A stretch of DNA of 64,000 bases, taken from the NCBI GenBank assembly GCA_965232265.1, contig CBDDPH010000002.1, positions 434,257-498,256 on the forward strand, given 5' to 3'. Origin of the DNA: Candidatus Latescibacterota bacterium (GTDB lineage Bacteria > Latescibacterota > UBA2968). Below are positions 14,485 through 46,720 of the stretch, in pieces; the stretch's first letter is position 1; every line of letters starts with the position of its first letter. The position numbers and the translations under genes are program-made. Under the pieces are notes generated by a model. That model made no database searches and was not told the origin of the DNA. It saw only the letters and a program-made list of their open reading frames with translations.

Positions 14485-17400
14485 TCAAACTGTAGCACCA
14501 GCAAGCATCATCTGCCCCTTTTCCGTGTACTGCGCCTTATCTTCTATCGCTACGGTGCGCCAGATGAGGAATTGTTTGCGTAGCGCGTTCATAAAATTTT
14601 TGTTGACCCGTCGCCATGACGAGGCGTCGCCCGATAGCCGATCTATGGTCAATGTCATGGCAAAAATATTGTGCTCGCCTGTGGGTATCGCTTCAAAATG
14701 CACCTGCTGGCTCACGCCCAGATCATAAGGTGCCAACCAGATTGTCGTGTCAATTGTATGTCCCTGTCCGGTTGCGGTTTCAACTGAGCCGAGCCGTGCG
14801 CCATCGGTGTAAAATGTGCCCAGGCTCTCACCTGCATGTGCCTGAAAATAATCAACGAGGAATACGGATAGGCCAAATACGTCTTTGCCGCCCACGGTAA
14901 ATGGAAATTCAAAATGCCAGCGGTCGCCGTCTGGATCGGGGAATTTCCAGCGGCGCGTCACGTCGGGTACGGCCATCATGGATGCCTGACGCGCGGGATA
15001 GATTGACGAGAGCAGGACCACGAGCATGACCAGCATGGAGGAGGTCACGGTCGAGAGTGCTGAATAATTCACGGTCAGTCCTTGTAAGGCATCTTGCCAC
15101 AGTAAAATTTTGACCACGCTTTGTCCCAAAAGATACCCGCCAACGGTTCCCAAAACAGCGTAAACACAGGCCTCGGCGATAAATAAGAAGGCGATGTGTA
15201 CGGGTGCTAATCCCACGGAAGAATAAATGCCGATTTCCCGGAAGCGTTCGTACACCGATCCCATCATGGTATTGAGCACGATCAGCGCGGCGACCAGTAT
15301 GGGAATGAACAAATTGGCCATGCCCTGCAAAGACGTATCGCCGAGGGAACTGTAAACCGCGACGCGTATGCCGCCATCTGCGGTTGGAATGCCGGCGAAT
15401 AATACCACGGATAACCGGGATAAAAACGATTTGATCTCGGCTTCGACATCCACTTCTTCGTGAAATCGCACGGCCACGGATTGCAGTGGACTGCCCACAT
15501 CGCGCAGCAGTGCATAGGGTACGATTAAAGTGTCATCGGGGTCCAGGTGTTCGAAGGGTACGGTATCGACTTCGGGGCGCTCCAATCCCTGCCGTTCTCG
15601 GGTCTCGGTCTGCGACATGACGGTGATAAACTCGTCTTCGGTAACTTGAAAATCTGCTGGCGTTATCTGTTCTTCATCCAGATCGACAAACAGGCGCATT
15701 TTCTCAGAATTGATCAGTCCAATTACTGTGAGTTGTTTGCCAAAGAGGCGGATGTGCGCCTTGCCGACATCTCGCTCCGTTATCCCCAGGGTCTCCGCTA
15801 TTCGATCGGGCAAAATACAGGCAGACTCACCCGGTTGAAACCAGCGTCCGATTCGCAGCAAGGTATCGACCTGCGTCACCTGGGCTTCTTCTGTCGCCAG
15901 TCCCAGGATTCCCTGGACGCGGGAATTTTTCTCTTCATAACGCAATACGGCTTTTGATTTTTTGTCTTCTCTTGTCGCGATATACCAGCTTCGGGGCGTT
16001 ATGGTGCCTCTGTCTTTGAAATTTATGAGCGCGTAATCGTAAGCCGTGTCTTCCAGTGGCCCCCAGAATTTGCTTCTGATCAGGATGCCGGGATACGCGC
16101 CTTCTGTATCGCGTTGAAGCTGGTGAAATTCCAATGCGGATTTGATAGAAGTAAAGGAGAGCACGGTAAATGTCAGCAGTACCAGAGTTGCAAATGTCAA
16201 CCAAGTGCGTAGCTTGCGCTTTTTCATATTGGCAATGCCCAGTTGAAATGCCGCCACTGATGCGCTGATGCGCCCTACGTCGGTTTCGTGCAACAATACT
16301 TCGGCACTGCGGAGTCGCCGGATATTCTCGTTGAACCGGCCCGATAGAATCGAGATGACAAAGATCGCCAGTGCTAAGATGACAAAAGCCAGCAAAATCA
16401 CAAAGGGGTTGGAGAGGTCAAATGCGGGGTGTACCTGGGACAGAAATATCCAGATGATGACAAAGACCAAGCCGATCCCGCCGATTTGCATGCGAATATC
16501 GGCAAAGGTAAAGATCAACCGCTCGAGAAAGAACGCACAGGGGATGACCAAGAGCATGAAGAAAATCACGCCGCGGATCACATCGTTCTGCGTTGTTTTT
16601 ACGTCTGGATATGCCCGCGATTCAATGCCCATGCCCGCGCGCGTGTGTTTTACAAAAGCATCCCATTGCTTTTCCTGAAGTGCGGTTTCTGCATCATCCA
16701 GATGTTGTTTTGCCTGCGCGTGCAATACTTCCAACCGCTGGTTTTCAATTGAGTACTGGCGCAGTTTTCGCATGCGCGACTCGTTCAACATCCACATGTC
16801 TCGCGCCGCCTGATAGGGCGTGCGGATTAGTGAGCCTGATGAGAGGGTTTGAAATCCCTCGCCCCGGGCATCCCACTCGGTGTCTGCGCTTTTTGAGTTG
16901 AGTAACAAATAGCGCACGCCAATTGCGCCTGCTCGCATGGCTATTTTCACTTTTTCACCTGGGGATGTATAGACGACGCCGACGGGTTCATCTGGCCCAA
17001 ATCCGATGTCATAACCGTATTCTTGCGGTGCGGTATTGCCCACGCCATAGACGCTGATGTTGGATAAGGTGTTCAAATATCGGGGATCGACTGTGCCGTA
17101 GAAATCGGTTGCTACGCAGGGAAATAGGATGACGGTTTGTTTTGTGATCCACCAGTTCATATTGAAATGACCGCTGTAGATTTTACCCTGTCGTCCCTGG
17201 TTGGGTGCGTACGTGATTTCGCCGCTGTGCGGGTCGATATAGTACGCCCGCACGTGTACGCGACGCTCTGCCACACCCGGGATATAGTATTCGCCGTTTT
17301 CATCTGCGAGGTCGTAGTAAATGCGCCGCACGCCTTTGATGGATTTTTCCAAGCCCATCCGCATGGCGGCGATTGCACCTGGGCGCGATTTATCGGGGGT

Positions 17401-19011
17401 GATGCTGCGCCGGGGAAATGTGCGTACATATCCCTTGAGGCCGCGCATGCGGTCGGTGGGGTCCAGTTTGTAGTCGGGTAAAAATTCCCTGTCGTTGAAC
17501 GACAAATCCAGCATGCCCGCGAGTACGCGAATCTGTTTGGTCAAATTGGCGTAGTTTATATACTCGGCCTGGTCCAGAGGGGTATCTACGCGGAATCGCG
17601 CGTCGTTTATGGTTGTCAATGAGAGTGCGGGGGTGCCCGCATAGAGTACGACTTCGCTGTCGCTTTTGATATTTTCGCCGGGGATGTACATGTCCCAGGT
17701 CATGCCGCCTTTGGGATTGATGCCATCGACCATGACGTCTTTTGACGGTACGCCCATGCCTTCGGCAATGGCGGTTGCATAGCGTACAAAGGATTTGCTA
17801 AATGTGGCAAAAAATCGCGTGGAAAAATAATTGACCGCTGTGTTGACGCCAAATCCAGCGGTTTGGGTCGCTACGCCTATTTCATCTGTCTGGCTCGAGA
17901 GATCCAATCCGATAAACAGGTCGATGTCAATGGGTTCGGTCATGAGCGCGGCAAAGTGTTCTTCTTTGCGCGAGTGCCGGTTCAGGAAGTCGCAAATACC
18001 CCGGAATCCCAGATGGTGTGCGGATGAGGCGAGGAAGAGGACCGTGTATTTGGGACGATGGGCTTGAAAATATTCAGCGAGACGCAGGAGTGCGACAATG
18101 CCACACGCCATTTCAGCACCGGGTGCCTGTGCGGGTACGACAGACATGGCGTCGTAGTAGGCGTTGATGACGACGATTTTTTTCTTCATTACTGGATCCG
18201 ATCCCTCGATCCAGCCCAATACGTTGGCTGCGTCGTTTTTCTTCCAGGGCATCCGGGATTCGAGTTGTATTTCTATTTCGCCCTGGTCTGCCAACAGAGT
18301 GCGTAATTTCTCACCGTGTTTGCGGTCGATCCAGAATCGCTCGACAGTGTTGGGTACTTGCAAAAATTTTGTTTCGGCCTGTGTATAAGATGTGGTATCT
18401 GGCGCGATGAATATGATTTGTTGCGCGCCCAGAACAGCGGCGTTGAGCCATCTGTTCCAGGTGTTAAAGTTCAGGAGGACGACGGTGTTTTCCACGTCTT
18501 TGCCGTCATAAGCTTTAAATTCGCCGTCGCCGCCGTCGACCAGGCGCGTTCGTATGCCGCCCGGTGGCAAGGTGGAGGTTTTCACGAGGTTGGGCCATAG
18601 CCCGGAGAGCGGAAAGACTTCGCCGGATGAGATGACGGTCAACTGGCTGCCGTCATCTACGGGCGAGGTTACGCCATAAGTTTCTGTTTCTACGTTTTTT
18701 AGATCCAGTGCCCGGAAGCGTTGTTCGATAAATTTCGCGGCGGCATCGTGTCCCGGATAGCCGGGTACGCGAGATTTATATTGGGTGAAAGTCGCCATGA
18801 GTGCGCGCACTTCTGCTTCTGTGATCTCGCGTTTTACGCGATCCGCTACGACTTCGGCACCCGGTACTGGGGCTGGTTCTACGGGTTCGGGGGGGCGCAA
18901 GCCCAGCACATGGCGCAGCAATGGATCAATCGTATCGGGTCCTGAGATGACTGCGCCAAACCCGAATACGGCAACCCCGATCAATGCCAACCAACCGATG
19001 CGACGAGACAT
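14485..19011 (-). CDS. Giant membrane protein: N-terminal signal/anchor, PA/M28-like ectodomain with substituted zinc ligands, 3-4 TM segment, FtsX/MacB-type permease (TM-periplasmic domain-3 TM) and ~220-aa C-terminal domain
   Basis: M28-like block NVLGWIEG...VVINAYYDAMS...PGAEMACG...LFLASSAHHLG (H to Y, DD to EM, EE to SA/HH); FtsX core GIYSSVGLAPVHIAFLFIAEACVYAVLGTVGGYLLGQ; ORF track starts at TTG 19026, first ATG is 19011. Confidence 0.6.
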   Translation of the reverse strand: MSRRIGWLALIGVAVFGFGAVISGPDTIDPLLRHVLGLRPPEPVEPAPVPGAEVVADRVKREITEAEVRALMATFTQYKSRVPGYPGHDAAAKFIEQRFRALDLKNVETETYGVTSPVDDGSQLTVISSGEVFPLSGLWPNLVKTSTLPPGGIRTRLVDGGDGEFKAYDGKDVENTVVLLNFNTWNRWLNAAVLGAQQIIFIAPDTTSYTQAETKFLQVPNTVERFWIDRKHGEKLRTLLADQGEIEIQLESRMPWKKNDAANVLGWIEGSDPVMKKKIVVINAYYDAMSVVPAQAPGAEMACGIVALLRLAEYFQAHRPKYTVLFLASSAHHLGFRGICDFLNRHSRKEEHFAALMTEPIDIDLFIGLDLSSQTDEIGVATQTAGFGVNTAVNYFSTRFFATFSKSFVRYATAIAEGMGVPSKDVMVDGINPKGGMTWDMYIPGENIKSDSEVVLYAGTPALSLTTINDARFRVDTPLDQAEYINYANLTKQIRVLAGMLDLSFNDREFLPDYKLDPTDRMRGLKGYVRTFPRRSITPDKSRPGAIAAMRMGLEKSIKGVRRIYYDLADENGEYYIPGVAERRVHVRAYYIDPHSGEITYAPNQGRQGKIYSGHFNMNWWITKQTVILFPCVATDFYGTVDPRYLNTLSNISVYGVGNTAPQEYGYDIGFGPDEPVGVVYTSPGEKVKIAMRAGAIGVRYLLLNSKSADTEWDARGEGFQTLSSGSLIRTPYQAARDMWMLNESRMRKLRQYSIENQRLEVLHAQAKQHLDDAETALQEKQWDAFVKHTRAGMGIESRAYPDVKTTQNDVIRGVIFFMLLVIPCAFFLERLIFTFADIRMQIGGIGLVFVIIWIFLSQVHPAFDLSNPFVILLAFVILALAIFVISILSGRFNENIRRLRSAEVLLHETDVGRISASVAAFQLGIANMKKRKLRTWLTFATLVLLTFTVLSFTSIKSALEFHQLQRDTEGAYPGILIRSKFWGPLEDTAYDYALINFKDRGTITPRSWYIATREDKKSKAVLRYEEKNSRVQGILGLATEEAQVTQVDTLLRIGRWFQPGESACILPDRIAETLGITERDVGKAHIRLFGKQLTVIGLINSEKMRLFVDLDEEQITPADFQVTEDEFITVMSQTETRERQGLERPEVDTVPFEHLDPDDTLIVPYALLRDVGSPLQSVAVRFHEEVDVEAEIKSFLSRLSVVLFAGIPTADGGIRVAVYSSLGDTSLQGMANLFIPILVAALIVLNTMMGSVYERFREIGIYSSVGLAPVHIAFLFIAEACVYAVLGTVGGYLLGQSVVKILLWQDALQGLTVNYSALSTVTSSMLVMLVVLLSSIYPARQASMMAVPDVTRRWKFPDPDGDRWHFEFPFTVGGKDVFGLSVFLVDYFQAHAGESLGTFYTDGARLGSVETATGQGHTIDTTIWLAPYDLGVSQQVHFEAIPTGEHNIFAMTLTIDRLSGDASSWRRVNKNFMNALRKQFLIWRTVAIEDKAQYTEKGQMMLAGATV

Positions 19012-19084
19012 GGAAGGACCTTTCAAGAAATCGGATAATTCAAAATTCAGACGCTATGAAGTGTACCAAAATAAGTGAGTTAAA

Positions 19085-21070
19085 TCAATACCATTTGTGA
19101 ACGGTGTGTCCCTGGGGCATGAACCAGATCGCATCTACGATGAGACCCAGAGCGGTTGATAGCACGTAAGCCACAAGCATGCCGACGAAAAACGGTTTTG
19201 AGCGGCGGTAAAAGGGTGCTCCGCCGATACGCAATAATGTGAATTTGATCAGCCAGGCGACAAAGATGGTGAAACTGGTGAGGCGGGCGAGCATGGTGCC
19301 CGATAGGGCGAGTCCGATGGGGTGCAGGGGCCACGATGTGAATTGGTAGCGCAAGAATAGCAGGGCATACATGGCAAATGCGCCGATCAGGAAAAAATAG
19401 TAGTCGATGACTTCCATGGGTTGCGGCGATACGATCGCGTTGACAGAATTTTGATAGCCGCCTACGCCAGCGCGAATGATGAGCCAGTTTGGCGAGAAAT
19501 TGTACCCGCCAATGCGATAGCCCAGCCAGATTGTAAAGAGGGTGGATGAGACGATGCCGACCACAAACGCCACGCAAAGGCCGCCAAAGAGGGGGCGTTT
19601 ATTGCCGGGGATGAAGTCGGACAGGCGGTTGAGATGCGTGCCCACGGAAAAGGTAAATCCGCGGAAGTGGTTGATGGCGACAGATGCGGGATAGAGCATG
19701 GCGTGTGTTGCCGCTGGAATGGCGCGGGCACCGCCCATGAGCGCGGTTGTCAGGGTCCAGGCTGAGGCCGGCGCATTTACGTAAATGAGGCCCGAGTCGG
19801 CGAGAATTTTCGATATGGCACCATAAGTCAAGAACATGGTTGGCAACAGGATGGCGATGACTTTCCACGCGATACCGGATGCGGATAGCCAGACCAGGAC
19901 ATAGGCGATTGAGACGGCGAGACAGCAGAAGGCTATGCGATAGGATATGAGTTCTCGGCTGTCGTCTATATGCGCGCTTTTGGGATAAAGCGCTTTTTGA
20001 AATGCCTGTTTCAGATGCGCCCGCGCAATCCATACCCACCACAGAGACAGGGCGACAAATGCGCCGGTTGTTTGCCAGGAATAGCGTTTGGTGGCATAGT
20101 AGCGGTGAAAGGCCGGTATGCCGAGTTGATCCAGGATACCGGATTCTACGGTGAACAGGAGATCGAAGAGCCACAGGCTGAGCAATACTTCCAAGCTCGC
20201 GAAATACGAAAAGCATATTCCCACTGTGCTTACAAATACCCACTGCGGCGGAAAGTTTCGGCCAATGGGTACCCAAGTGCCGCCGGCGGTTGGAAATTTT
20301 GGCAGCGCGGGATGAAACCACGCAATGATGTTCCAGACAAATATTACGCCCACCACGCCAAATCCGGTCCAAAACATCCGACCCTGCATAAATTCGGGCA
20401 AGTAGGTCCGCCCGGTGCCGGGCTGTGTGGTCAGTTCAACGATGGGTTCCATCGCGGGATAGACCAGTTTTTCGTGCTCTGCCCATTGTTTACGCATGAT
20501 GACCGAAGCACAAAAGCAGGCGAGTGCGACGGCACATACAAAGGTGAACCACCAGAAGAGGGGACCGATCCAGACGGACCATGGCACGGGCGCACCGGCG
20601 GGCAAGCCGTCGTAGAACCAGTTCATTGCACCGTCGCGATTGGACGGGATGATCCATTCGGGCAGGTACGGGTGCAAAAACTCTGCCCATCGGTTTTCGG
20701 GTGTAGAAAAATAATAAGGGGTTACGATGACGCCGACGAGATAGCCGCTTACGCCATAGGTGGGGCCGAGGGAACTGATAAAGCCCATAGAAAAAATTAC
20801 GAGCCATTCGCCCGAGGAAAAGGCAAAGGGTTTGCCAAACCACCGCGCGAGCACACCACACACAATCAAACACAATAGTGTGAGCATCAAATTGCCCATG
20901 GGCATGTGGCTATAGGCCATGAAGGAGCTGTGCAAGATGTATCGCACGACTGTTGCCAGTGCGCTGATTGCGACGACCAGCACAAGCCCGAAGATCAGCG
21001 ATCGGACTGTGACCCCTTTGTTCGCATGATCTGGCGAATTTGCGATTGGATATGTTTGTTCTGCGCTCAA
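19085..21070 (-). CDS. Uncharacterised polytopic membrane protein (~14 TM), paralog of 46847..48835
   Basis: Shares blocks TPENRW...PYLP...PSN; GLP.G...PW.VWIGP.FWW; ILRKQW.E.E.L.YP and C-terminal FMPQGHTVHKWY versus FPGGGHGVHGWA with the second copy. Confidence 0.5.
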   Translation of the reverse strand: MSAEQTYPIANSPDHANKGVTVRSLIFGLVLVVAISALATVVRYILHSSFMAYSHMPMGNLMLTLLCLIVCGVLARWFGKPFAFSSGEWLVIFSMGFISSLGPTYGVSGYLVGVIVTPYYFSTPENRWAEFLHPYLPEWIIPSNRDGAMNWFYDGLPAGAPVPWSVWIGPLFWWFTFVCAVALACFCASVIMRKQWAEHEKLVYPAMEPIVELTTQPGTGRTYLPEFMQGRMFWTGFGVVGVIFVWNIIAWFHPALPKFPTAGGTWVPIGRNFPPQWVFVSTVGICFSYFASLEVLLSLWLFDLLFTVESGILDQLGIPAFHRYYATKRYSWQTTGAFVALSLWWVWIARAHLKQAFQKALYPKSAHIDDSRELISYRIAFCCLAVSIAYVLVWLSASGIAWKVIAILLPTMFLTYGAISKILADSGLIYVNAPASAWTLTTALMGGARAIPAATHAMLYPASVAINHFRGFTFSVGTHLNRLSDFIPGNKRPLFGGLCVAFVVGIVSSTLFTIWLGYRIGGYNFSPNWLIIRAGVGGYQNSVNAIVSPQPMEVIDYYFFLIGAFAMYALLFLRYQFTSWPLHPIGLALSGTMLARLTSFTIFVAWLIKFTLLRIGGAPFYRRSKPFFVGMLVAYVLSTALGLIVDAIWFMPQGHTVHKWY

Positions 21071-21073
21071 TTC

Positions 21074-23440
21074 TTATCTCTTACCGATTCTGAATATCCC
21101 TTCCCGAACAGCGGTCTGGGTACTGTTGAGGTCTTTTACTGTCATGAGCAAGCGATACCGCCCGGGCTCAACGCGGCCGATATCGAGCGCGACGTAGTCG
21201 GCAGTCCAGAGGTCGCGGCCCGTTTGTTCGTATTGTACGGTGATGAGTTCCCCATCTCTTCGCCGTATTCTGGGTTGCGAGGCGAGTTCGCGTCCTTTTT
21301 CCGGGGCGACAGCAAAGGCGACCTGGTAGTGCGTTTGCCCAAAGGTGTCTCGCGTCAGGTTGTAAATTTCAAAATAGACGAAAATGGGCGTGCCCAGGAA
21401 AAAGGTGCGAGATGGCGATGTTGTGATGCGCCACCTGTCGCGCGCGGGCAGGGTATTGCTCTGCTCCTGAGGTGCGGAAGCAGGTTCTTCAATATGCTGT
21501 GCGATCTGTAGATCACTGAGCATTAAACTGTCACCTGAAAAATCGTGCAGGCGCACTTTTTCCCGATAATTGCCCAGTCGATTGGTGTTGACCCGCCACA
21601 TTTGTACGGCGAGGTCGTATTCTCCGGGGGATAGGGAAATGTCGATGCGGTCTCTGGCGATCAGGCTTTTTCCGCGGAGTCCGGGGGGAAGGGGTATGGC
21701 GACGTCTTCCCGCAGGCGTTTTGCGTCGCGGTTCTGATCATCTACGAGGGCGATGCGGCGTTCGACTACGACTGTGGTATCCGGGTCGCTGGACATTGCG
21801 ACTTCGTCTATTGGGAGGCCGATGTTGATCTGGAGGTCTGTTTTGTCGTTTTGTCCGCGGAAGGACAGGGCCTCGTAATAGAAGTTGAGGGGGTCGAGGT
21901 CGGATGTGTCGTAGCGTTCGGGTTTTTTCGCCGCCGCCGCTGCGACTTGTGATGCGGGTGAGAAGTCGTTCATCATTCGGAGGAATCTGAGCGGCGACCC
22001 GCGAGAAGCCACGTCATAAACGTCTTCTCTGTCGATGGTTGGGACGGGTGCATAGTTGTAGATATTCGTGTGCATTTCGTCGGTGAATACGACTTCTATG
22101 CCGTGGTTGATGTCGGGATATATCCACACTTCCCAGGGGACGCTGGAGAAATCGTTCCCGGCTGTGACGGGTTTCCAGCCGCGCAAGCCAAGGGTGCCGT
22201 CGTCTTCTTCGAGGGGGAGGTTGCTTTCGACATTTCGAAGCGCGATGCGGACGGGGAATACGGGTCCGGTGTAGGTGACGGTTGTGCCGGGACGGCCGTA
22301 GAGTTGAAATGCCAGTTTTTCCTGTATGCGTTGCACGGGGATCGGGACGCTGGCATTGGGTTCTCGCCAGGTGGAGCGGTAGTCCGGTTCCCCGTATCGG
22401 ATATAGACTTCGCCCCGCTGGTCAAAGGGGTATTTGTAACGCCCAAAGAAGGTCCGCGCATGCCAGACGCGACGATAGTGTTCCGCGCGTCTCTGGCTTC
22501 CTCCGGTTGTGCCAAAGGTATCTTTGCGGATCCAGAAGGCGTTCAGAAAAGCGTCCACACCTTCGTCTGAGGTCACGCGATACGATGCAATTTCTTCTGG
22601 CGTGGCGATCAGGGAGATGTCTTCATAGATTGCTCTTTCCCGCGCCGATAGGGTTTCCAGATATTTTTGAAATACGGATAGGGCGTCTTCGTAACGCCGC
22701 GAGGCCAATAGCACTTGCGCCAATAGCGGAAGTCTTCGCGCATCGGCCATGTGCGCGGCAATCTGGGTCACGATGTTGTAGCGTTTTTCGGCCAAAAATT
22801 CAAGGGCAAATTCAAGTGCGGGCGTTTCGTCCTGTGTGCCGTGTGACAGGTAGGTGTTATAGTGGGATAGTGCTTGAGGGGTATCGCCTTTTTTGCGATA
22901 AAGGCGCGCCAGTAGCAGGTGGGCGGCACCATAGCGGGGGTTGATTTGTAGTGCTTTGTTTGCCGCTTCTATTGCGTCTTTTTCTTTTCCGCGCGCCAGA
23001 AAGGTTCGGCCGAGGACTTCATAGCTTTCAGCGCGGTTGGAGTCGGCCTGTATCGCTTTTTCAAGGTGGGAGGTCGCGCGTTTGAATTTGTTGCGATATT
23101 CCAGAAGGACCCGTCCCATTCCCAGATGGGCGTCTGCCTGGTACGGGTCGTTTTTCAGCGATCGCTCAAATGCGGCTTCGGCGCTGTCGGGCAGTTGGAG
23201 TCGGAGATAGAGGTGGCCGATACGGGCGAGTATCAGGGTGGAGTCCGCAGAACTCGGTACGGCTTCTTTTAATGTGTCGATGGCTTCTCTGATCAGGGTT
23301 TTTCGCCCGAGTGCCTGGGCTTTGAGATAAAGGGCGTCCAAGTCTGGGTCTTCGGCAGCGGCAGGTCCAAATGGGATCAGACATAAAACACCGATACAAC
23401 ACATCCGCCACAAGAAGCTATTTATCTGAATATTTATCAT
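21074..23440 (-). CDS. Secreted TPR-repeat protein with C-terminal GWxTD domain
   Basis: Signal peptide, N-terminal TPRs, FWIRKD and KYPFDQRGEVYIRYGEPDYRS motifs (GWxTD-family signature), shared C-terminal block IFVYFEIYNLTRDTFGQTHYQV. Confidence 0.65.
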   Translation of the reverse strand: MINIQINSFLWRMCCIGVLCLIPFGPAAAEDPDLDALYLKAQALGRKTLIREAIDTLKEAVPSSADSTLILARIGHLYLRLQLPDSAEAAFERSLKNDPYQADAHLGMGRVLLEYRNKFKRATSHLEKAIQADSNRAESYEVLGRTFLARGKEKDAIEAANKALQINPRYGAAHLLLARLYRKKGDTPQALSHYNTYLSHGTQDETPALEFALEFLAEKRYNIVTQIAAHMADARRLPLLAQVLLASRRYEDALSVFQKYLETLSARERAIYEDISLIATPEEIASYRVTSDEGVDAFLNAFWIRKDTFGTTGGSQRRAEHYRRVWHARTFFGRYKYPFDQRGEVYIRYGEPDYRSTWREPNASVPIPVQRIQEKLAFQLYGRPGTTVTYTGPVFPVRIALRNVESNLPLEEDDGTLGLRGWKPVTAGNDFSSVPWEVWIYPDINHGIEVVFTDEMHTNIYNYAPVPTIDREDVYDVASRGSPLRFLRMMNDFSPASQVAAAAAKKPERYDTSDLDPLNFYYEALSFRGQNDKTDLQINIGLPIDEVAMSSDPDTTVVVERRIALVDDQNRDAKRLREDVAIPLPPGLRGKSLIARDRIDISLSPGEYDLAVQMWRVNTNRLGNYREKVRLHDFSGDSLMLSDLQIAQHIEEPASAPQEQSNTLPARDRWRITTSPSRTFFLGTPIFVYFEIYNLTRDTFGQTHYQVAFAVAPEKGRELASQPRIRRRDGELITVQYEQTGRDLWTADYVALDIGRVEPGRYRLLMTVKDLNSTQTAVREGIFRIGKR

Positions 23441-23494
23441 GGTCTCAGGTCACAAGGTGTGAAATCACAGTAGAGGCGGGTTTCAAACCCGCCT

Positions 23495-26400
23495 CTACTG
23501 CACGACAAAAAGGGCATTTTTGGAGGCGGTTTGTTCGCCGTTCAAATCGATTATCACGACTTCCAGCGCGTAGCGTCCCGGTTCGCGGTCGCCCAATTCC
23601 AGTTCTGTATAGACGGTTTCCAGGTTCATTGTTCCGACCTGCTCATAGCCCAATAACACTTTTTCTCGTTTGCCGCCGAGCGTTCTCACCAGGCGAGATA
23701 CGGCGCCGCCCACGCCTTTGCCTTTTGGCGCAATTGTGTATTCTACCTGGTATTTGGTTTGACCAAATTCATCGCGTTTCAGATTGTAGATTTCGTAATA
23801 GACAAAGATGCTCTGTCCCTTGGGATAGGTGCGCGTGGGCATGGGGACGACGTGTAACTCGCCTTTGCGGAATTTGTCCTGGGGACCGCCTTCTGCAATG
23901 CGCCAGGCGAGTTCCAGGTCGCTCACTTTCATTGAGCGGATCGGATATTTTTCCAATTCGATTATCTGGCGATACCGCCCCTGCCGCCCAGACAGACGGT
24001 CCTGTAGCTGTACTTCCAGCTTGTAATATCCCGGCGGGGCGTCCAAGCGCACGACGTCGGGGACAAACGCACCCTGTATGCCGGTTTGATCGCCCGCGTT
24101 GCGAAATCGCACATCGCCTGTGCGCCGATACACGTCTCCGGTCTGTTCGTTTAAGAGGGATACGGTTCGCTCCACGACCAGTTCGGTGGTGTTGTTTTCG
24201 GCAAAATACCGTCCCAGCGTGCGCGGGATCCCGGTATAGACTTCCAGCGCGCTCGCGTCATTGCGGGGACTCTGAAAATCCGCGAGGTCATAATAAAATT
24301 CCAGGGGGCGGGTGTTTTCTGGCGTGGCGTAATAATCCGGTGTTACCCGAGCGGCAAATTCGGCTACCCTTCGGGGATTGTACCTGTTGAGCAGGGCCAG
24401 TGTGCGGATGGGGATATTGGGATCCAGAGGCGCGGGCGCGTAGTCGAAATTGCCATTCATTGCTTCGTCGGTGAAGGTTATTTCAATGCCGCCGTTCACA
24501 TCGGTATAGACCCAGGTCTCCCACCGCACCATAGAGGCGTCTTCTGGGACGGAGACCGCGTTGAAATCCGGCTGGAGATCGAAAAATTCACTGCCCATAT
24601 TTCCGGCATTGACGACTGTATTTGCCAGCCGTTCAAAAGTGCTGATGTCCTCTCCGGTCTGGTCATCGCCTGTTGCCTGTGCCGAACGCACGGTGCGCTG
24701 CTCTTCGTCTCCCGCCTCGAGCCCCTGCTGCTCCCGTTCCTGTGACTGTTCAATAGCCTGTTGCATGGATGCGTCCTCAAGTCGCGCCCTGAGCGGGGTT
24801 GCGTCACTTAGTCTGGTTTGAAGTCCTCGTACGGGATATACCGGGCCAAAATAGGTCTGTTGCGCGGCTTCACCACCAAATAGCGTTTGTGCCACGCGCT
24901 CTTTTACACGTTGCACAGCGAGACTCTGATCCAAATTCAGCATGTTTGAGCGCGATCTGTAATCCGGTTCTCCGAATCGGATATAGACCTCGCCGCGCCG
25001 GTCAAAGGGCTTTTTCTTTTCTGAGAAATTTGTCAGGGCATACCATACCCGTCTGTAATGCTCCAGTTTGCGTTCATTGATCGCGGTGATCAAATTTGGA
25101 TCTTTGAGTGCCCAGAACTGTCGCAAAAATGAGGCACGCGCCGCTTCTGTGCCGAGGCTGTTGTATTCTTCCAGTTCTTCGGCGGATGCGAGGAATTGGA
25201 TGTCTTCGTATAGTGCGCGGTGTTGCGGATTGAGATGCGCCACATAGCGGGAAAAATAGGTCTGCGCCCAGTTCGGGCGCTTCAGCTCGAGACACGCCTG
25301 CGCCAAGATGGGCAGGGATGTTATTTCTTCGGGGTACTGGCGGATGTGGTTTTCCAGTAATTTGACAATGCGGTCAAAGTTTTTGCTTCGCAAATAGGCT
25401 TTCGAAAGCAGTTCTCTGCCTTCCGGGTCTTCGGGCGCGAGTGTTATGTAGCGGGCATAGGCCATAGCCGCCTGTTCATGGTCTTCTTCCTGCTCTTCCC
25501 ACCATTTGCCCAGCAGTTTGTAGGTCGGCGCGTAGGTCGGATCCATTGCGATGACGTGGTCGAGGTCGCGTTTGGTGTCGTATTCTTTGAGCTTATATCG
25601 CGTCTGTCCCATGTTGAAACGGGCATCGCGGTGGATATTGTATAGCTGCGATAGCCGTTCATCTGGGGGCCATTGCAAGGCTCTTCTGAAATAGCGGATG
25701 GCATTGTACAGGCCTTTGGGGCGATTTTGAAAGACGAGTCCCAGTCCGTTGTACGCTTCGGATAGACGGTGGTTGAGGTCAATGGCGCGTTCAAAAGCGT
25801 TTCGCGCACGGTCGTAATCCTCTACTTCTAAATAGGCATAGCCGAGGAGGCAATGGCCCAGTTCCAGTTCGGGTGCCACATGGGTGAGTGCGGTTAGTAT
25901 GGGTACGGCGAGGGTGTCGTTTTGCGATAGGAGGGTTTTGCCCATTTTCAGGAGTGAATCTATCTGTGTTTGTCCAATGGGGCGGTCTTGCACGCGGTAG
26001 TTTTCGGCGTGTCGAATCAGTTCTACGAGGCGATTGGGGTAGAAATAGCTGATAACAATAGCCTCACCCACAGCCGCATCGGGTCTGTAGAAATAGCTGA
26101 TGGGCCGCGTGTTGTCCCGGTCTGCGGGGGCGCGAAACAGGCGGGCGATGGCCCTGGGATCGGCTCGGGATTCCGCAACAGCCCATTTTTGAAGCGCGGA
26201 CAGTTGGTCGGGCATTTCCCCGCGGTGGTCGCGGCGATATGCGGTCAATAGTCTGGCGATTGCGGTGAGGTGGTCGCGGCAGACCCAGCGCGATCCGTTT
26301 TTTCGGATTTCTTGTGCGGCACTTTGAAATGTCTGCACATAGTCCTGCATGGGGGATTCGGACAGGCCGTTTTTCGCGGATTGCCTGGCCAGTATTTCAA

Positions 26401-26986
26401 AATGACGCGCTGCCTGTTTGTAATAATCAGCGGCTTGTTTGAACTCCCAGCGCGAGAGACTCAGTTGCGCCAGACGCACGGCGTTGAAGCCCGATATGAG
26501 ATCGGGCAAGGCGTTTTCTCCCAGGGCTGGCGCATCCGGTTTTAATCCTTTTATCGCTTTCTCGGTGGTCCAGATAATAGATTCCATATCCGGATCATCT
26601 ATCATGAGGATATCGCGTCCCGGCGATGTCAGTTCCCAGTATCGGGATGGGGCGAGGGAGATGGTGTGTCCCCTGTGCAAGATGTCGCCAGGTGCGGGCA
26701 ATACCAGGGGGATGGATTGGAAAACGATGGTTCCGGTTTCTGTTCTGCCCAGTTGACCGGGTCGCCCGGGGAAAATACCGAGACACTGTTCCCGTTCCGC
26801 ACCGTCGGTCCACACCTCTGTCAGTGCGATACCGCTCACCTCTCGAGAGTAGGTCCACACCTGACCGGTCGCGCCAGTGCGGAGGATTAAATCCTCCTGA
26901 GCGTCTGCAGTACTCCAGAGCGCGATAGCTATGAGCAATGCGTATCTGACTGTTGGTGAAGTGAACACGGTATTCTCCTGATGCAT
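23495..26986 (-). CDS. Secreted TPR-repeat protein with GWxTD domain (longer paralog of 21074..23440)
   Basis: FWALKDP plus KKKPFDRRGEVYIRFGEPDYRS; C-terminal IFVYYEIYNLKRDEFGQTKYQV; extra ~400-aa N-terminal region. Confidence 0.65.
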   Translation of the reverse strand: MHQENTVFTSPTVRYALLIAIALWSTADAQEDLILRTGATGQVWTYSREVSGIALTEVWTDGAEREQCLGIFPGRPGQLGRTETGTIVFQSIPLVLPAPGDILHRGHTISLAPSRYWELTSPGRDILMIDDPDMESIIWTTEKAIKGLKPDAPALGENALPDLISGFNAVRLAQLSLSRWEFKQAADYYKQAARHFEILARQSAKNGLSESPMQDYVQTFQSAAQEIRKNGSRWVCRDHLTAIARLLTAYRRDHRGEMPDQLSALQKWAVAESRADPRAIARLFRAPADRDNTRPISYFYRPDAAVGEAIVISYFYPNRLVELIRHAENYRVQDRPIGQTQIDSLLKMGKTLLSQNDTLAVPILTALTHVAPELELGHCLLGYAYLEVEDYDRARNAFERAIDLNHRLSEAYNGLGLVFQNRPKGLYNAIRYFRRALQWPPDERLSQLYNIHRDARFNMGQTRYKLKEYDTKRDLDHVIAMDPTYAPTYKLLGKWWEEQEEDHEQAAMAYARYITLAPEDPEGRELLSKAYLRSKNFDRIVKLLENHIRQYPEEITSLPILAQACLELKRPNWAQTYFSRYVAHLNPQHRALYEDIQFLASAEELEEYNSLGTEAARASFLRQFWALKDPNLITAINERKLEHYRRVWYALTNFSEKKKPFDRRGEVYIRFGEPDYRSRSNMLNLDQSLAVQRVKERVAQTLFGGEAAQQTYFGPVYPVRGLQTRLSDATPLRARLEDASMQQAIEQSQEREQQGLEAGDEEQRTVRSAQATGDDQTGEDISTFERLANTVVNAGNMGSEFFDLQPDFNAVSVPEDASMVRWETWVYTDVNGGIEITFTDEAMNGNFDYAPAPLDPNIPIRTLALLNRYNPRRVAEFAARVTPDYYATPENTRPLEFYYDLADFQSPRNDASALEVYTGIPRTLGRYFAENNTTELVVERTVSLLNEQTGDVYRRTGDVRFRNAGDQTGIQGAFVPDVVRLDAPPGYYKLEVQLQDRLSGRQGRYRQIIELEKYPIRSMKVSDLELAWRIAEGGPQDKFRKGELHVVPMPTRTYPKGQSIFVYYEIYNLKRDEFGQTKYQVEYTIAPKGKGVGGAVSRLVRTLGGKREKVLLGYEQVGTMNLETVYTELELGDREPGRYALEVVIIDLNGEQTASKNALFVVQ

Positions 26987-27144
26987 CGTGACCCCTCCCC
27001 CGGCCCCTCCCAGATGCGGGGAGGGGAGACCTGGTTGCCCCCTTCCTCATAGGCACAGGCGAAGCCTACAACGAAGCGGTAGGTGTACAACTGGCCGCCA
27101 GGCCAGTTCACCGAGTAACGGAGTTAGGGGGGTAGGTCCCGTTT

Positions 27145-28563
27145 TCAATGCAGTTTGCGAAACGCAGTCCAGCATACGCGCAATAGCAAAAAGCCGTGCC
27201 GAAAGCGGTGGATCTGTGTGCTTCCGTACACCCGATCCCGATAGCGCACGGGAACTTCTACGATTTTGCGAACGAGTTTGGACGCGCCGAGGAGGAGGTC
27301 GAAGTCGCCAAAGGGATCGAAATCGCATACATCGCCACGCGCTCGGGCCAATTTTTTGTAGTCCGAGGCAAACAGGACTTTGGTACCGCACAGGGTATCT
27401 ACAATGCGTTGCCCCAACAGGCAGCTCAATACCCAGCCGAAAAACCGATTGCCCAGAAGGTTCAGGAATCGCATGGCCTGTTGTTCCATGGGATACACGA
27501 GGCGAGACCCAACGGCGAGGTCGGCGCGGCCTGATATCAGGGCGTCGAAGAATTTGGGCAAGTCCTCTGGCGCCACGGTCAGATCGCCGTCCAAGATCAT
27601 CAATATGTCGCCTCTGGCTGCGGCGAATCCCTGCCGTACAGCGTCTCCTTTGCCCGTTCCGGTTTGCCGAATTAGACGGATGTCTGTTCCGCTATACACG
27701 TCCAGGCATCGCTCGACTTCTTTGGCGGTGCCATCCGTCGAGTTTCCCACCACAAAGATCAATTCTGTATGTGCGCCCATCACAGGTGTGCGTGCTATTG
27801 CCGCTTCTACTGTGCCGCGCTCGTTTTTGCAGGGGATAATGACCGAGCAAGTGACTGCGGATGCTTCCCGTGCGGGAAAGACGGGACGCGCGACAAGTGT
27901 TTGTATGAGACACAGGCGTCTCAGTCCTGGCACTCTCGCCAAGAAGCGATTTGCAAACGATGCGAGAAGGGGTACACGACGGGGCAAAAACAGGCGGCTT
28001 TCTCGTCGTATTTCTTCAAAGTTTGATAGATAAAGTAAATTCTGAATATCCCGGTGTGTCAACCAGTTTTGCACGGGTTCGGGCATTTTTAAGCGAAATA
28101 TTTCCGCGGTTTTTAGCAGGGGTTTCCACAGGGGATTGTAGTGTGTAATCAGGACGCGGGAGCCGGGGAGTACGACTTTCCACAGTTCGCTGAATACGCG
28201 CTGGATGTCCGGCAAAAAACCCAGCAGGTCCGATAAGATGATCCACTCGAATCGCTCCCCTTCGGGTAAATTCTCCGCGCGTCCCACGCGAAATCTTAGG
28301 TCGGGATATTTTTTGCGCGCGCGTTTTATCATTGCTTCGCTGAAGTCAATGCCGAGTCCCCGCCCCGGTTTCAGGCCCGCGAGCAGGTCGCCGGTGCCGC
28401 ATCCTATGACCAGGACGGACGATCCTTCGGGTATCGCGCAACGGCAAAATCGCAAGACTTCTTCGTGATAGGTGCGGTTGCGCCTGCGCCAACGGTCCCG
28501 GTTTTCGGCGGCTTCGTCAAAAAATTTCCGAATGACTCGGCTATCTGGAAGGGGCGTTTTCAT
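27145..28563 (-). CDS. Bifunctional class I SAM-dependent methyltransferase / family-2 glycosyltransferase (dolichyl-phosphate-sugar synthase-like)
   Basis: N-terminal VLVIGCGTGDL (MT motif I); C-terminal CSVIIPCKNE...DGD...(GT-A/GT2). Confidence 0.7.
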   Translation of the reverse strand: MKTPLPDSRVIRKFFDEAAENRDRWRRRNRTYHEEVLRFCRCAIPEGSSVLVIGCGTGDLLAGLKPGRGLGIDFSEAMIKRARKKYPDLRFRVGRAENLPEGERFEWIILSDLLGFLPDIQRVFSELWKVVLPGSRVLITHYNPLWKPLLKTAEIFRLKMPEPVQNWLTHRDIQNLLYLSNFEEIRRESRLFLPRRVPLLASFANRFLARVPGLRRLCLIQTLVARPVFPAREASAVTCSVIIPCKNERGTVEAAIARTPVMGAHTELIFVVGNSTDGTAKEVERCLDVYSGTDIRLIRQTGTGKGDAVRQGFAAARGDILMILDGDLTVAPEDLPKFFDALISGRADLAVGSRLVYPMEQQAMRFLNLLGNRFFGWVLSCLLGQRIVDTLCGTKVLFASDYKKLARARGDVCDFDPFGDFDLLLGASKLVRKIVEVPVRYRDRVYGSTQIHRFRHGFLLLRVCWTAFRKLH

Positions 28564-28578
28564 GTTAGTGGATAGTGG

Positions 28579-30435
28579 TTAGTGGTTAGTGGTTGATGGT
28601 TGCTTTTTCCTGAGTTTTTCCAATTCACGCTGCGCCAGTTGCGCCGCCTGTGGGTCTCCTCGCCAGAGTTCTATAAAGCGCGTGTACGCCTGTATGGCTG
28701 CGGTTTTTTCGCCGTTGTCCCGATGGGCTTTTCCCAGGTTAAAATACGCTTCAGCCCAATTTGGGCGCAGTGCTATGGCGCGGGTATAAGCTGTCGTTGC
28801 TTGGCCGGGACGGCCCAATTTTTCGCGGATTACGCCCAGGTTGTAGAAGATTTCTGCGTTGGTTGGGTCGAGAATAGCCGCTCGTTCAAAGGCAGAATGC
28901 GCGTCGGTTATTTGTCCGGCCTGCATTGCCGCCAGTCCTTTGTTCATGTAGGCTTCGATGTAATCCGGTTCTATTTCTACTGCTTTTTGATATGCGTCTG
29001 TGGCGTGCTTAAAACGGGCTGTTGCGGCGTAGAGATTTCCCAAGTTGTTATAGGTGAGGGCACTTTCTCGCACTGATAGGGCATTTTTATAAGCTGTTTC
29101 GGCATCGGATATCCTGCCGCGTTCAGATAGGGCGTCGCCCAGGGCGTGTTGCATTTTCGCGCTTTCGGGATACGCTGTTACGGCACTTTGGTAGAGTGTT
29201 AAGTCGTCTCGCCAGTCCGCATTTCGGATCATGGTTCGGGTGCTATAGGCCAGGATGATGAGGATGGCAAGGGCGGTTGCGACCGTTTTGCGGTGTTTTT
29301 CAAGGTGTTCAAATCCCAGGCCACACAGCGTGAATACACCGAGAACCGGGATGTATAAAAATCGCTCCTGAAAAATGGCGTTGATCAGGACGAGTGTTTG
29401 CGATACGGCTGAATAGGGTATAAAGAATAATGACAGAGCAAAAAATACGCAGGCCCAGCGCTTGTAAAAAGCACCTGCCCATAACAAGAGACTCGCGATG
29501 CCGAGGATTATGCCCGCGATTGCTTCGGGCGTGAGTATAGAGGTGATGACGGGTATGGCGTTATAGGAGTAATCTACGGATAATTTGATCGAAAACAAAA
29601 TGAGAACGCAATATTTCCAAAAGAGTCCGGCGGCAGTCAAGAGTCTGTGGTCGAGGGGTTGGTCTATAAGTGGGTTGTTGAGCGCGAGTATATTTTCGGC
29701 TGAGAATCCCAGGTTCGCAGCGACTTTTCGCATGATTAGATAGAGGACAAAAACCCCGATGAAGCCAGCCCAGCGCACACTGCGTTGCCACAGGAAATTG
29801 CGTGTCCCATCGCGGGACATAGCAAAGGTCAGATCGACGGCGATGATCAGTCCCAGTACGGTTATCGCGCTTTCTTTGGAGAGCAAGGCGAAAAAGAATC
29901 CCGCGAGGGCCAACCCGTAATATTTTTCTCCGCTTCGGTTGTGCCACCTGATGTACAAAAGCAGGGCTGATAGGGAAAACAAGCCTGCCAATAGATCTGC
30001 ACGCCCAAATGTGATGCCGGCCACGACTTCGGCATGGATGGGGTGTACGGCAAATAGCAATGCGGCCAGGATCGCGCCCCGGTTCAGACCCAACTTCAGG
30101 CAGAGCAGATAGGCGAGGAGGCTGTTGACCACGTGCAGGATCACGTTGGTCAGGTGAAATCGGAACGGCCAAATCCCGCCCAGGCCATCCAGCATAAAAG
30201 ACAGGATTGTGAGGGGGCGGTATTGCCCATTGACGTTAGCTTCTCCCTCGTATCCGGCCCAGTAATGCGTGGTGAAAATACCCCACACATCGGCTTCGCG
30301 AAGCAATCGGTTGCGTTCGATCAGAAAGTGATCGTCATAGACCAATCCGTTGCCCAGGCTGTTTGCGAATACCAGAAAGGCCGCCAATCCCACCGCGACG
30401 AGAGGATAGGTTTTCCCGCGTTGATTTACAGGCAT
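28579..30435 (-). CDS. TMTC-like protein: N-terminal polytopic GT-C/PMT-like membrane domain plus C-terminal TPR repeats (putative protein O-glycosyltransferase)
   Basis: LVYDDHFLI and HPIHAEVVAGITFGRADLL blocks typical of TMTC/DUF1736-type proteins; ~11 TM; 5-6 TPR units at the C-terminus. Confidence 0.55.
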   Translation of the reverse strand: MPVNQRGKTYPLVAVGLAAFLVFANSLGNGLVYDDHFLIERNRLLREADVWGIFTTHYWAGYEGEANVNGQYRPLTILSFMLDGLGGIWPFRFHLTNVILHVVNSLLAYLLCLKLGLNRGAILAALLFAVHPIHAEVVAGITFGRADLLAGLFSLSALLLYIRWHNRSGEKYYGLALAGFFFALLSKESAITVLGLIIAVDLTFAMSRDGTRNFLWQRSVRWAGFIGVFVLYLIMRKVAANLGFSAENILALNNPLIDQPLDHRLLTAAGLFWKYCVLILFSIKLSVDYSYNAIPVITSILTPEAIAGIILGIASLLLWAGAFYKRWACVFFALSLFFIPYSAVSQTLVLINAIFQERFLYIPVLGVFTLCGLGFEHLEKHRKTVATALAILIILAYSTRTMIRNADWRDDLTLYQSAVTAYPESAKMQHALGDALSERGRISDAETAYKNALSVRESALTYNNLGNLYAATARFKHATDAYQKAVEIEPDYIEAYMNKGLAAMQAGQITDAHSAFERAAILDPTNAEIFYNLGVIREKLGRPGQATTAYTRAIALRPNWAEAYFNLGKAHRDNGEKTAAIQAYTRFIELWRGDPQAAQLAQRELEKLRKKQPSTTNH

Positions 30436-30527
30436 TTTTTATCCAGGAAGGACACGAAGGACAAAAAAATAGAAATGCTACGACATACATAGACGCGCCA
30501 GTGCTTTTTGTCATTTACTTTGGTACA

Positions 30528-30572
30528 GAATACAAAGGGCGATTGCCAGGGTGCAACCCCGGCAGTCGCCCA
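30528..30572 (-). terminator. Candidate intrinsic terminator after the PorV-like gene (15-bp imperfect stem GGGCGACTGCCGGGG/CCCTGGCAATCGCCC then U-rich)
   Basis: Read from sequence; two mismatches in the stem. Confidence 0.4.
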
Positions 30573-30619
30573 AAAAATGTACAAACTATGGTCATCGCAG
30601 AAACTGCGATAGCCGTTCC

Positions 30620-31615
30620 TTAGAACGTGCCACCTATCGATATGCGTAGCGGCGAGTCGAACAGTGCCACGCCGTCGATATCCTTCAGCAGTGAGTAGGA
30701 TATATCTATGGCGAAGGTACGCCCACCCAATGCCTGCTTGACGCCAGCGCCAAAGGCAAAGGACTCGAGGTCGTAATTCCACTTATAGCCCGCGCGCACA
30801 GCGACCATGTTTTGGACCCAGAGTTCGGCTCCAAAGTGATAGCGTTGCTCGAAGTCAACGGGGAATACGCTCTCGGCTGCCAGCGTCAAATAGGTCGGAT
30901 CGCCTTTTTCGCCATAAACCTCGGCTGCCACGCCCATGTTGTAGGTCAGGGGCATGAGATACGAGAATGCCTCTTCCCTGGCTTTCTGATCTGGCCCGAA
31001 GTTCCTGAATGACATGGCTACGCGCAGGCTTCTAAACCCGGTGTAGAAATGACTGCCCAGGTCTATCGTAAATGAGCTGGTTCTTTGCGTGTAGAGCTTT
31101 TCCTGCACATAGTTGGCTTTGGCACTGAAAGAAAACTTATCCGTGAATTTTATGGCGTAGAGCAGGCCCACCGCCATGTAGTTCACATCGACAAACTGAC
31201 CCGTTCCACTCGGCTGGAAGATGGTGGTTTCTTCGATGGGTTCAACCTGCTGTGTAATCAGGCTGATACCCAGCACTTCGCCCCGAGACGAGTGGGTATT
31301 GAAGACAGCTGCCGCCGAATACAGTTCTGTACCTGCCAGCCACTTGGTGTAATTGGCCTGATAGGCGAACCTTTCCACGTGGGTTAGCCCCGCGCCGTTC
31401 CAGAAGATGGCGTTGATATCATCGGCAATTGCCGTGTATGAATCACCCATCCCCACGGCACGCGCACCCTGTCCGATTTTCAAAAACTGCATGCCTGCGA
31501 TGTTGACTTTCTTGACCCCTTTGATCGCGGTTACGCCTTCATATTCAAGCCCCAGAGCGGGACTGGCGATCAGCAGGCTCAGGAACGCTGTAAGTATGAG
31601 ATTTTTTCGTTTCAC
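30620..31615 (-). CDS. PorV/PorQ-family outer-membrane beta-barrel protein
   Basis: Signal peptide; GARAVGMGDSYTAIADDINAIFWNGAGL motif typical of PorV/PorQ-like barrels; C-terminal F. Confidence 0.5.
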   Translation of the reverse strand: MKRKNLILTAFLSLLIASPALGLEYEGVTAIKGVKKVNIAGMQFLKIGQGARAVGMGDSYTAIADDINAIFWNGAGLTHVERFAYQANYTKWLAGTELYSAAAVFNTHSSRGEVLGISLITQQVEPIEETTIFQPSGTGQFVDVNYMAVGLLYAIKFTDKFSFSAKANYVQEKLYTQRTSSFTIDLGSHFYTGFRSLRVAMSFRNFGPDQKAREEAFSYLMPLTYNMGVAAEVYGEKGDPTYLTLAAESVFPVDFEQRYHFGAELWVQNMVAVRAGYKWNYDLESFAFGAGVKQALGGRTFAIDISYSLLKDIDGVALFDSPLRISIGGTF

Positions 31616-31633
31616 AATGAATACCTCCTTCGG

Positions 31634-34066: not shown

Positions 34067-34140
34067 AGTATTCCTCGCCCTCCATGTCGGGTTTCGGAAA
34101 GGGTATGCGAGTGGGCTACAAGACCCACTCGCACAACCCG

Positions 34141-37395: not shown

Positions 37396-37423
37396 AGCAC
37401 GACCTCCTTAAAGAGTGAATGGA

Positions 37424-46602: not shown

Positions 46603-46720
46603 GCCTGCTTAAAGCATGCAGAGCCTGCCCCTGCACGTCTTAAGCAGGGGCGTGACGACAGGAAGAGCCGCCGTCATCGCGGCGTGGTTTTAGCCGCGAT
46701 CCAGAAGGTTTGTTTGTCAT
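46603..46720 (+). repeat. REP-like mosaic element copy D (inverted GCTTAAAGCATGC fragment, GCCCCTGC/GCAGGGGC hairpin, GTCATCGCGGC-GTGGTTTTA-GCCGCGATCCAGAAGG-TTTGTTTGTCATCGC)
   Basis: Conserved 3' module plus different GC-rich 5' hairpin; in divergent promoter region. Confidence 0.45.

Follow-up and report, generated by a model that had tools for sequence, protein, structure and literature searches.

DUF6785/DUF6784 membrane proteins of a Latescibacterota genome as remote homologs of OPT/Yellow-Stripe transporters, and the MacB-like partner of one of them

Type VII ATP-binding cassette (ABC) transporters of the MacB/LolCDE kind normally act on periplasmic or outer-leaflet cargo and work outward. 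The secondary transporters of the OPT/Yellow-Stripe (YSL) superfamily (PF03169, TC 2.A.67) include a single structurally solved member, barley HvYS1 (PDB codes 7wsr and 7wst), in which D490 and D494 have been proposed as the proton site (PMC9691689); as far as the accounts in PMC9691689 and PMC9131082 extend, all characterised OPT members are importers. Here we compare with both systems two paralogous genes, A and B, located on a 64,000-nucleotide stretch of DNA (contig CBDDPH010000002.1, hereafter the window) from a Candidatus Latescibacterota bacterium. Their products are remote OPT homologs which lie outside the OPT family as presently defined, and A is genetically locked to a MacB-like/M28-like protein devoid of an ATPase.

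The DUF6785/DUF6784 family and its link to OPT/YSL transporters

Paralog A (19085..21070, minus strand) starts with TTG and encodes 661 amino acids, paralog B (46847..48835, plus strand) starts with ATG and encodes 662. A reading of the window from its sequence only, made beforehand, had described them as collinear paralogs of about 660 residues and of unrecognised family. Both open reading frames lie where that reading had placed them, and their products align collinearly across the full length with 32% identity (BLASTP, E=5e-120). Every motif block that it had quoted is visible in this alignment, namely TPENRW in A and TPENGW in B, GLPAGAPVPWSVWIGPLFWW and GLPSGVSIPWEVWIGPIFWW, IMRKQWAEHEKLVYP and ILRKQWVESERLDYP, as well as the GHxVHxW end, which reads GHTVHKWY in A and GHGVHGWA in B. 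The term "unrecognised family", by contrast, was overstated, since both proteins match Pfam DUF6785 (PF20581) followed by DUF6784 (PF20580). For A, DUF6785 is found with E=2e-94 and 317 bits (cut-off 25) over model positions 1-498 of 498, and DUF6784 with 67.6 bits (E about 1e-18); for B, DUF6785 reaches 353.6 bits over the full model (E=2e-105) and DUF6784 68 bits (E=9e-19). Both thus score above the gathering threshold over the whole DUF6785 model and with the two domains in the same order, and in each of the 97 homolog clusters the two domains are present, whole or in fragments. What holds of the earlier statement is that the family, while catalogued in Pfam, is uncharacterised: NCBIfam contains no model matching A or B, no mention of DUF6785 or DUF6784 was found in the literature searched, and a literature search for GWxTD, a domain encoded next to A, likewise gave no paper.

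The family is large. An exhaustive profile search yielded 8,513 clusters at 50% identity with E<=1e-3, of which 3,349 have E<=1e-30. Named members belong to Latescibacterota, to metagenome-assembled genomes (MAGs) labelled Gemmatimonadota, to Handelsmanbacteria and to Planctomycetota/Brocadiia, with a strong expansion in Latescibacterota, the phylum of the source genome; 97% identical orthologs are present in OX638317.1 and others. A scan of the GTDB representative genomes with two A-type peptide patterns gave at least 548 encoding loci, and eight of the best 80 of these stem from a single 5.36-Mb Latescibacterota chromosome. Among the loci whose gene neighbourhoods were inspected (L numbers below), 73 genome loci were collected via a closer alignment and are therefore biased towards A-like paralogs.

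A fold search together with profile-profile comparison places the family as a remote branch of OPT/YSL. The fold search recovered the core and scaffold architecture of HvYS1. Comparison of the DUF6785 profile with a broad OPT profile by hhalign resulted in a probability of 92.8% and E=4e-7 over 435 columns, and with a relaxed threshold the alignment runs end to end over 567 collinear columns (query 7-655, template 2-641). As controls, the reversed OPT profile gave E=0.22, and eight block-shuffled OPT profiles gave E=0.009-0.043 with short alignments. The broad profile comprises 16 proteins, all verified as PF03169, including twelve prokaryotic OPTs from plasmid records; plant YSLs were retrieved with a bait sequence, the retrieved database proteins all being annotated as PF03169. 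A narrow profile of plant YSLs only was non-significant (probability 7.9%, P=0.004), so that the broad profile is the informative one. The family profile found nothing at E<=10 among the sequences of the PDB, and motif search detected no canonical OPT gene among the collected loci. Residues in common with OPT proteins are an N-terminal T.R motif, a conserved glutamate (E88, equivalent to OPT E68), the pattern R-x7-L-x-Y-P-x6-E, corresponding to LRR..V...LPYPEG.A.AE of OPT, and a conserved basic residue, R482, at the lysine position of QDLKTGY. Invariant in the family are E88, W167, W196, E200, P205, S298, R350, H352, R378, R482, H583 and K609. The sequence-only reading had named, as evidence that would count against it, a clear profile match to a characterised family with conserved catalytic residues. 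Half of this was found: the superfamily link is there, while the OPT signature residues are mostly missing.

Canonical prokaryotic OPT genes are themselves repeatedly followed by a small PqqD-family gene (L079, L080, L081, L088 and L090, archaeal and clostridial plasmid loci). This adjacency hints at a link of OPT transporters to systems for ribosomally synthesised and post-translationally modified peptides (RiPPs) or to peptide-chaperone systems.

The partner of paralog A

Fifty-eight nucleotides downstream of A and on the same strand lies the gene of its conserved partner, a membrane protein of 1513 amino acids (14485..19026, minus strand). A signal anchor is followed by a periplasmic PA/M28-fold domain, whose metal site is non-canonical, and then by a beta-rich domain, a coiled coil and three transmembrane (TM) helices; then comes a MacB/LolC/FtsX-type module in the order TM1, periplasmic domain, TM2-4 (FtsX), which makes up the C-terminal third, and finally a cytoplasmic tail of about 160 residues. 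This module has the four-helix transmembrane domain and the periplasmic core of its class, with Pfam matches to FtsX (E=3e-14) and MacB_PCD (E=2e-4) and a phmmer match to MacB (5lil, E=4.6e-9). The partner has neither a nucleotide-binding domain nor a fused ABC ATPase. No ABC_tran domain occurs in the scanned proteins of the window, and none of the genes neighbouring the pair in four further loci (L004, L005, L046, L092) encodes an ABC ATPase, a distant gene being possible.

The N-terminal domain has the M28 fold and matches the corresponding hidden Markov model (HMM). In the aminopeptidase AAP the co-catalytic ligands and the general base are H97, D117, E151, E152, D179 and H256. This canonical set is not kept intact in the HMM alignment of the partner, where two histidines align with E151-E152, the position of D117 is a one-residue deletion next to a glutamate, and YYD stands in place of HxD. 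These variant residues do not vary across the partner family. Since canonical catalytic residues of M28 are replaced, we give less weight to the simple picture of an active aminopeptidase that supplies a peptide transporter.

By tblastn, the partner gene is encoded downstream of an A-type gene in 29 of 78 loci, distributed over two clades, and in most of these directly after the DUF6785 gene. Tandem duplication of the entire pair is seen in two loci (L042 and L060). Furthermore, one Latescibacterota lineage possesses a natural fusion, P0283, a single protein of 2,120 amino acids whose residues 28-1455 are 41% identical to the partner in the window and are followed by an acidic linker and by DUF6785 and DUF6784. 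The contig DNA shows no break in the reading frame, and at least four other members of the cluster, which come from different assemblies, have the same junction. The order of the fusion, from the cytoplasmic tail of the partner to the N-terminus of the transporter, is topologically consistent. Pairing, duplication as a unit and fusion are strong evidence of functional coupling and are suggestive of a physical complex.

That A lies within an operon of GWxTD and FtsX genes, as the sequence-only reading had stated, is borne out by its position 3 nucleotides after a TPR+GWxTD gene and ahead of the FtsX-domain gene, all on the minus strand. Its proposal to look for co-occurrence with GWxTD and TMTC-like genes led to a different conserved companion, the M28-like/FtsX protein. 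GWxTD, TMTC-like and GT2 genes accompany the DUF6785-partner pair in close relatives only, and in more distant pairs a short TPR gene precedes the two, the other neighbours being unrelated; GWxTD genes recur, in addition, in the receptor cassettes of other paralogs.

In a set of close relatives (L006-L019), one to three extra TPR/GWxTD-like genes of about 780-840 codons as well as small DUF2283 and helix-turn-helix (toxin-antitoxin-like) genes lie between the two partners, where the window has its short gap. The site between the DUF6785 and the FtsX-fusion genes appears to be a hotspot of paralog insertion.

Gene neighbourhoods

Across the collected loci, tandem DUF6785 doublets and triplets are common. 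The 111 genes flanking unpartnered paralogs include, as the most frequent Pfam families, 13 GFO/IDH/MocA oxidoreductases, nine homocysteine S-methyltransferases, five xylose-isomerase-like TIM barrels, four Zn-dependent dehydrogenases and four FG-GAP proteins, a composition typical for small-molecule catabolism. A second recurrent arrangement is a cassette in which a TonB-dependent receptor (CarboxypepD_reg-Plug) is followed by a protein of about 750-840 amino acids, a PorV/FadL-like barrel, often a TPR/GWxTD protein, and DUF6785 (L052, L065, L071, L073, L075, L077 and L095). In L097 it is condensed to a compact four-gene unit; the only member with a name in the cluster concerned is a Handelsmanbacteria MAG. 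Together, catabolic flanks and TonB-receptor cassettes indicate an inner-membrane importer role.

The nine homocysteine S-methyltransferase-domain proteins, encoded in L021-L040 and other loci beside unpartnered paralogs, raise the possibility that some paralogs may import a methyl donor such as S-methylmethionine.

The minus-strand cluster of the window that leads to A and its partner (38137..14485) is an extended version of the recurrent receptor-to-DUF6785 cassette. It begins with a small outer-membrane beta-barrel (37424..38137; weak match to Pfam OMP_b-brl, homolog in L052), followed by a TonB-dependent-receptor-like outer-membrane protein with CarboxypepD_reg and Plug domains (34141..37395, Pfam), to which receptors adjoining other DUF6785 paralogs are homologous, by a protein of 837 amino acids with no Pfam or NCBIfam match (31634..34147), and by a PorV/FadL-like outer-membrane beta-barrel (30620..31615; weak Pfam PorV match, E=1.7e-5), which recurs beside other DUF6785 paralogs. 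Two genes assigned by Pfam are lineage-specific and present only in close relatives, namely a TMTC-like GT-C (PMT_2/DUF1736) and TPR protein (28579..30435) and a methyltransferase fused to a GT2 glycosyltransferase (27145..28563). Upstream of A are two TPR and GWxTD-domain proteins, one of 1163 amino acids (23495..26986; TIGR04514, E=4e-14) and one of 788 (21074..23440; Pfam TPR families, and TIGR04514 GWxTD_dom with E=8e-12); their genes are paralogous, as a 62-nucleotide DNA repeat is common to both. All these genes are on the minus strand.

The protein without family always stands between the TonB-dependent receptor and the PorV/FadL-like barrel, in the window as well as in seven other cassettes (L052, L065, L071, L073, L075, L077 and L097), and may be a functional analogue of SusD in these phyla.

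For B, the sequence-only reading had described a stand-alone gene beside a copy of a repetitive extragenic palindromic (REP) element, which agrees with what is seen: B stands singly, with a minus-strand gene on either side, and a palindromic, REP-like repeat of about 49 nucleotides (46665..46713, no strand assigned; repeat families D4/D11) is located 134 nucleotides upstream. Four copies of this repeat occur in the window (2645-2693, 8989-9037, 43187-43213 and 46665-46713). An exact-sequence look-up of B gave no match. The one close relative found, P0224, is 97% identical and resides in a different context beside a restriction-modification system; as the neighbourhoods differ, no conserved context can be assigned to B. 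A heparinase II/III-like neighbour (43231..46242) recurs near a few other paralogs (L020, L054, L055) and is not found near the ortholog of B. B is most readily understood as a transporter of the A kind that stands alone, with no conserved neighbourhood.

Several further observations concern these surroundings. In L007 (OZ244960.1) the orthologs of A and B adjoin each other divergently, while in the window the two genes are 26 kb apart; the A and B loci have thus been rearranged between close strains. The REP-like elements are intergenic, with a core ATCGCGGC...GCCGCGAT followed by CCAGAAGGTTT, and some copies resemble terminator hairpins. Beyond B, a protein of 421 amino acids (48919..50184, minus strand) carries an N-terminal tandem repeat rich in Lys, Ala and Pro (AKKPAKK..., histone-H1-like) which is encoded by DNA repeats at 49788-50091. 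Neither Pfam nor NCBIfam has a match for this protein, which is conserved in L007 and L012 next to genes of the B or the A type. An open reading frame of 113 codons (46254..46595, minus strand), located just upstream of the heparinase II/III-like gene, encodes two EF-hand/dockerin-like calcium-binding repeats.

Elsewhere in the window, the large chain of carbamoyl-phosphate synthase is split into N- and C-terminal halves on two adjoining genes (5646..7457 and 7460..8908, minus strand), and tRNA-Ser(tga) at 10830-10917, tRNA-Ser(gct) at 11050-11141 and tRNA-Gln(ctg) at 12645-12718 (plus strand) flank a glutamyl/glutaminyl-tRNA synthetase gene.

Proposed function, alternatives and comparison with known systems

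The explanation which we favour, and which as a whole we consider rather likely, is that DUF6785/6784 constitutes a prokaryote-specific, deeply divergent branch of the OPT/Yellow-Stripe superfamily and that A and B are inner-membrane secondary transporters, A as part of a module with its partner and B free-standing. They would probably take up small organic solutes from the periplasm by an elevator-type, ion-gradient-driven mechanism like that of OPT proteins. The radiation of the family in Latescibacterota would have given rise to numerous paralogs whose substrates most likely differ, and many of these may represent the inner-membrane leg of TonB-dependent uptake cassettes composed of receptor, protein of about 800 residues, PorV/FadL-like barrel and TPR/GWxTD proteins. 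The subclass of A would be a fixed two-gene module with the M28-like, MacB/FtsX-like protein of about 1,500 residues, and to judge from synteny and fusion the two most likely form a physical complex. The large periplasmic part of the partner may bind or process substrate received from the upstream outer-membrane and TPR/GWxTD components, whereupon the OPT-like subunit would carry the product across the inner membrane. Confidence decreases from ion-coupled OPT-like transport over solute import in TonB cassettes to the complex of A with its partner.

Several observations weigh against this explanation. Neither the OPT model PF03169 nor TIGR00728 or TIGR00733 matches A or B at E<=1. The OPT signatures L-P-(Y/F)-P-(S/E)-G-T-A...A-E and Q-D-(L/F)-K-T-G-Y are absent except for L.YP, a downstream glutamate and R482: the (S/E)GTA segment after YP is missing in the profile alignment, and both aspartates of the QDxK motif align with non-acidic residues, in an alignment whose detail is uncertain at 14% identity. 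As neither the signature nor the Asp pair is kept, the coupling ion and the mechanism are uncertain. Gene neighbourhood is the sole basis for the direction of transport and for the substrate. The processing attributed to the M28-like domain may amount to binding only, since the canonical catalytic Glu-Glu pair and one His ligand are missing there. Finally, the operon of A in the window also holds GT-C-like and GT2 genes, which would fit envelope biogenesis or export.

This last point leads to an opposite assignment, that of an exporter or flippase serving the biogenesis of the envelope or of glycoconjugates. A would then carry a precursor, lipid-linked or soluble, outward for use by the TMTC-like GT-C, the GT2/methyltransferase and the TPR/GWxTD proteins, and the partner would extrude or assemble the product. 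The TMTC-like GT-C and TPR gene and the methyltransferase-GT2 gene in the operon of A, in the window as in its closest relatives, speak for it, as do the MacB hits in the partner, modules of the MacB/LolCDE type pushing periplasmic or outer-leaflet cargo outward. However, the glycosyltransferase genes are confined to these closest relatives, and the pair is kept without them in L004, L041-L051, L060 and L076; other paralogs lie beside catabolic enzymes and TonB-dependent receptors, and the characterised OPT members covered by the two sources cited above import. We therefore regard outward transport as unlikely. A glycosyltransferase of the GT-C type, an O-antigen polymerase or ligase, or another membrane enzyme, as considered in the sequence-only reading, shares with A and B a general likeness only (polytopic proteins of about 660 residues, conserved periplasmic-loop motifs, glycosyltransferase genes nearby), and neither a GT-C or Wzy/WaaL fold nor a match to the HMM of such a family was found; fold and HMM evidence leave this idea effectively refuted, with hardly any credence remaining.

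A different role for A would be that of an energy-coupling subunit, the OPT-like protein, rather than chiefly carrying a nutrient, harnessing an ion gradient to do conformational work on the MacB-like mechanotransmission module, which has no ATPase, and so replacing the ABC ATPase. It would account for the lack of an ABC ATPase gene in the window and beside the pair in the examined loci, and strict pairing, unit duplication and the in-frame fusion of tail to N-terminus point to a tight complex. Yet partnered and unpartnered paralogs have the same invariant residues, and in a rough neighbour-joining tree, of which only well-supported clades were used owing to a spurious basal group from wrong-strand reading-frame calls, the partnered paralogs are not monophyletic. 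Both findings suggest an ordinary transporter that gained a partner. The ATPase may also be encoded elsewhere, which is common for FtsX-family permeases, and we know of no precedent for such an arrangement. We hold this role improbable. Somewhat more broadly, A and the protein of about 1,500 residues might be one machine, either with the OPT-fold elevator as the motor of the MacB-type module or with a MacB-like periplasmic apparatus feeding substrate into the transporter. This is a speculative idea to which we likewise assign a low probability; in either version it would, if true, amount to an envelope-spanning device of a new class, serving uptake or processing and connected with TonB-dependent receptors and GWxTD/TPR proteins.

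On the favoured explanation of OPT-like importers, a large orphan family (at least 8,500 clusters at 50% identity) would gain a structural and mechanistic assignment as OPT/YSL-type secondary transporters, which suggests a route over the inner membrane for the substrates that Latescibacterota and related uncultured phyla have taken up by TonB-dependent receptors; metabolic reconstructions of abundant marine and sediment organisms would gain from it. That a DUF should prove to be an OPT-fold transporter will not greatly surprise the specialist. The surprising and testable part is the unexpected architecture of the fusion with an ATPase-less MacB-like protein, which has implications for the way FtsX/MacB-type modules can function when no dedicated ATPase is present. 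The natural fusion offers a single-chain target for cryo-electron microscopy, a candidate being NCBI MEE2729158.1 (2,083 amino acids).

The receptor cassettes resemble polysaccharide and peptide utilisation loci of Bacteroidota, a likeness of general kind (SusC-like receptor, accessory proteins and transporter) and not a tested membership. In both, a single cassette unites a CarboxypepD_reg-Plug receptor with accessory proteins of outer membrane and periplasm and with a transporter of the inner membrane, and there are many cassettes per genome. In contrast to the Bacteroidota loci, no SusD-family gene was detected in the cassettes, which have the protein of about 800 residues and the PorV/FadL-like barrel instead, and the inner-membrane transporter is DUF6785 and not of the MFS or SSS type.

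The partner shares with the type VII permeases MacB, LolCDE and FtsX the succession of TM1, periplasmic core and TM2-4 FtsX domain, with sequence matches to the structures of MacB, LolC, YtrF and FtsX. It differs from them in being without a fused or neighbouring ATPase, in the additional periplasmic M28-fold/beta/coiled-coil region of about 800 residues, the three extra TM helices and the tail, and in its genetic tie to an OPT-like transporter. Compared with non-catalytic or single-metal M28-fold proteins such as Nicalin, GAA1, transferrin receptor and glutaminyl cyclase, it has a strictly conserved site of its own, with YYD, GAE, SAHH and LDL in place of HxD, GADD, AEE and NLD of M28.

With the OPT/YSL proteins, DUF6785 shares the YS1/OPT fold and collinear profiles, whereas identity is about 14% and the OPT HMMs do not detect it. 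Peculiar to DUF6785 are an extracytoplasmic insertion of about 55 residues (TPENRW...GLP.G..PW.VW..P.FWW), the conserved C-terminal GH.VH.W motif and the expansion to many paralogs per genome. Some of its members pair or fuse with a MacB-like protein, a feature noted for none of the OPT genes examined, among which no systematic search was made. New in comparison with all these systems is thus a very divergent branch of the OPT superfamily which escapes the OPT models, in which the signature residues are missing, and of which one subclass has an unprecedented partner.

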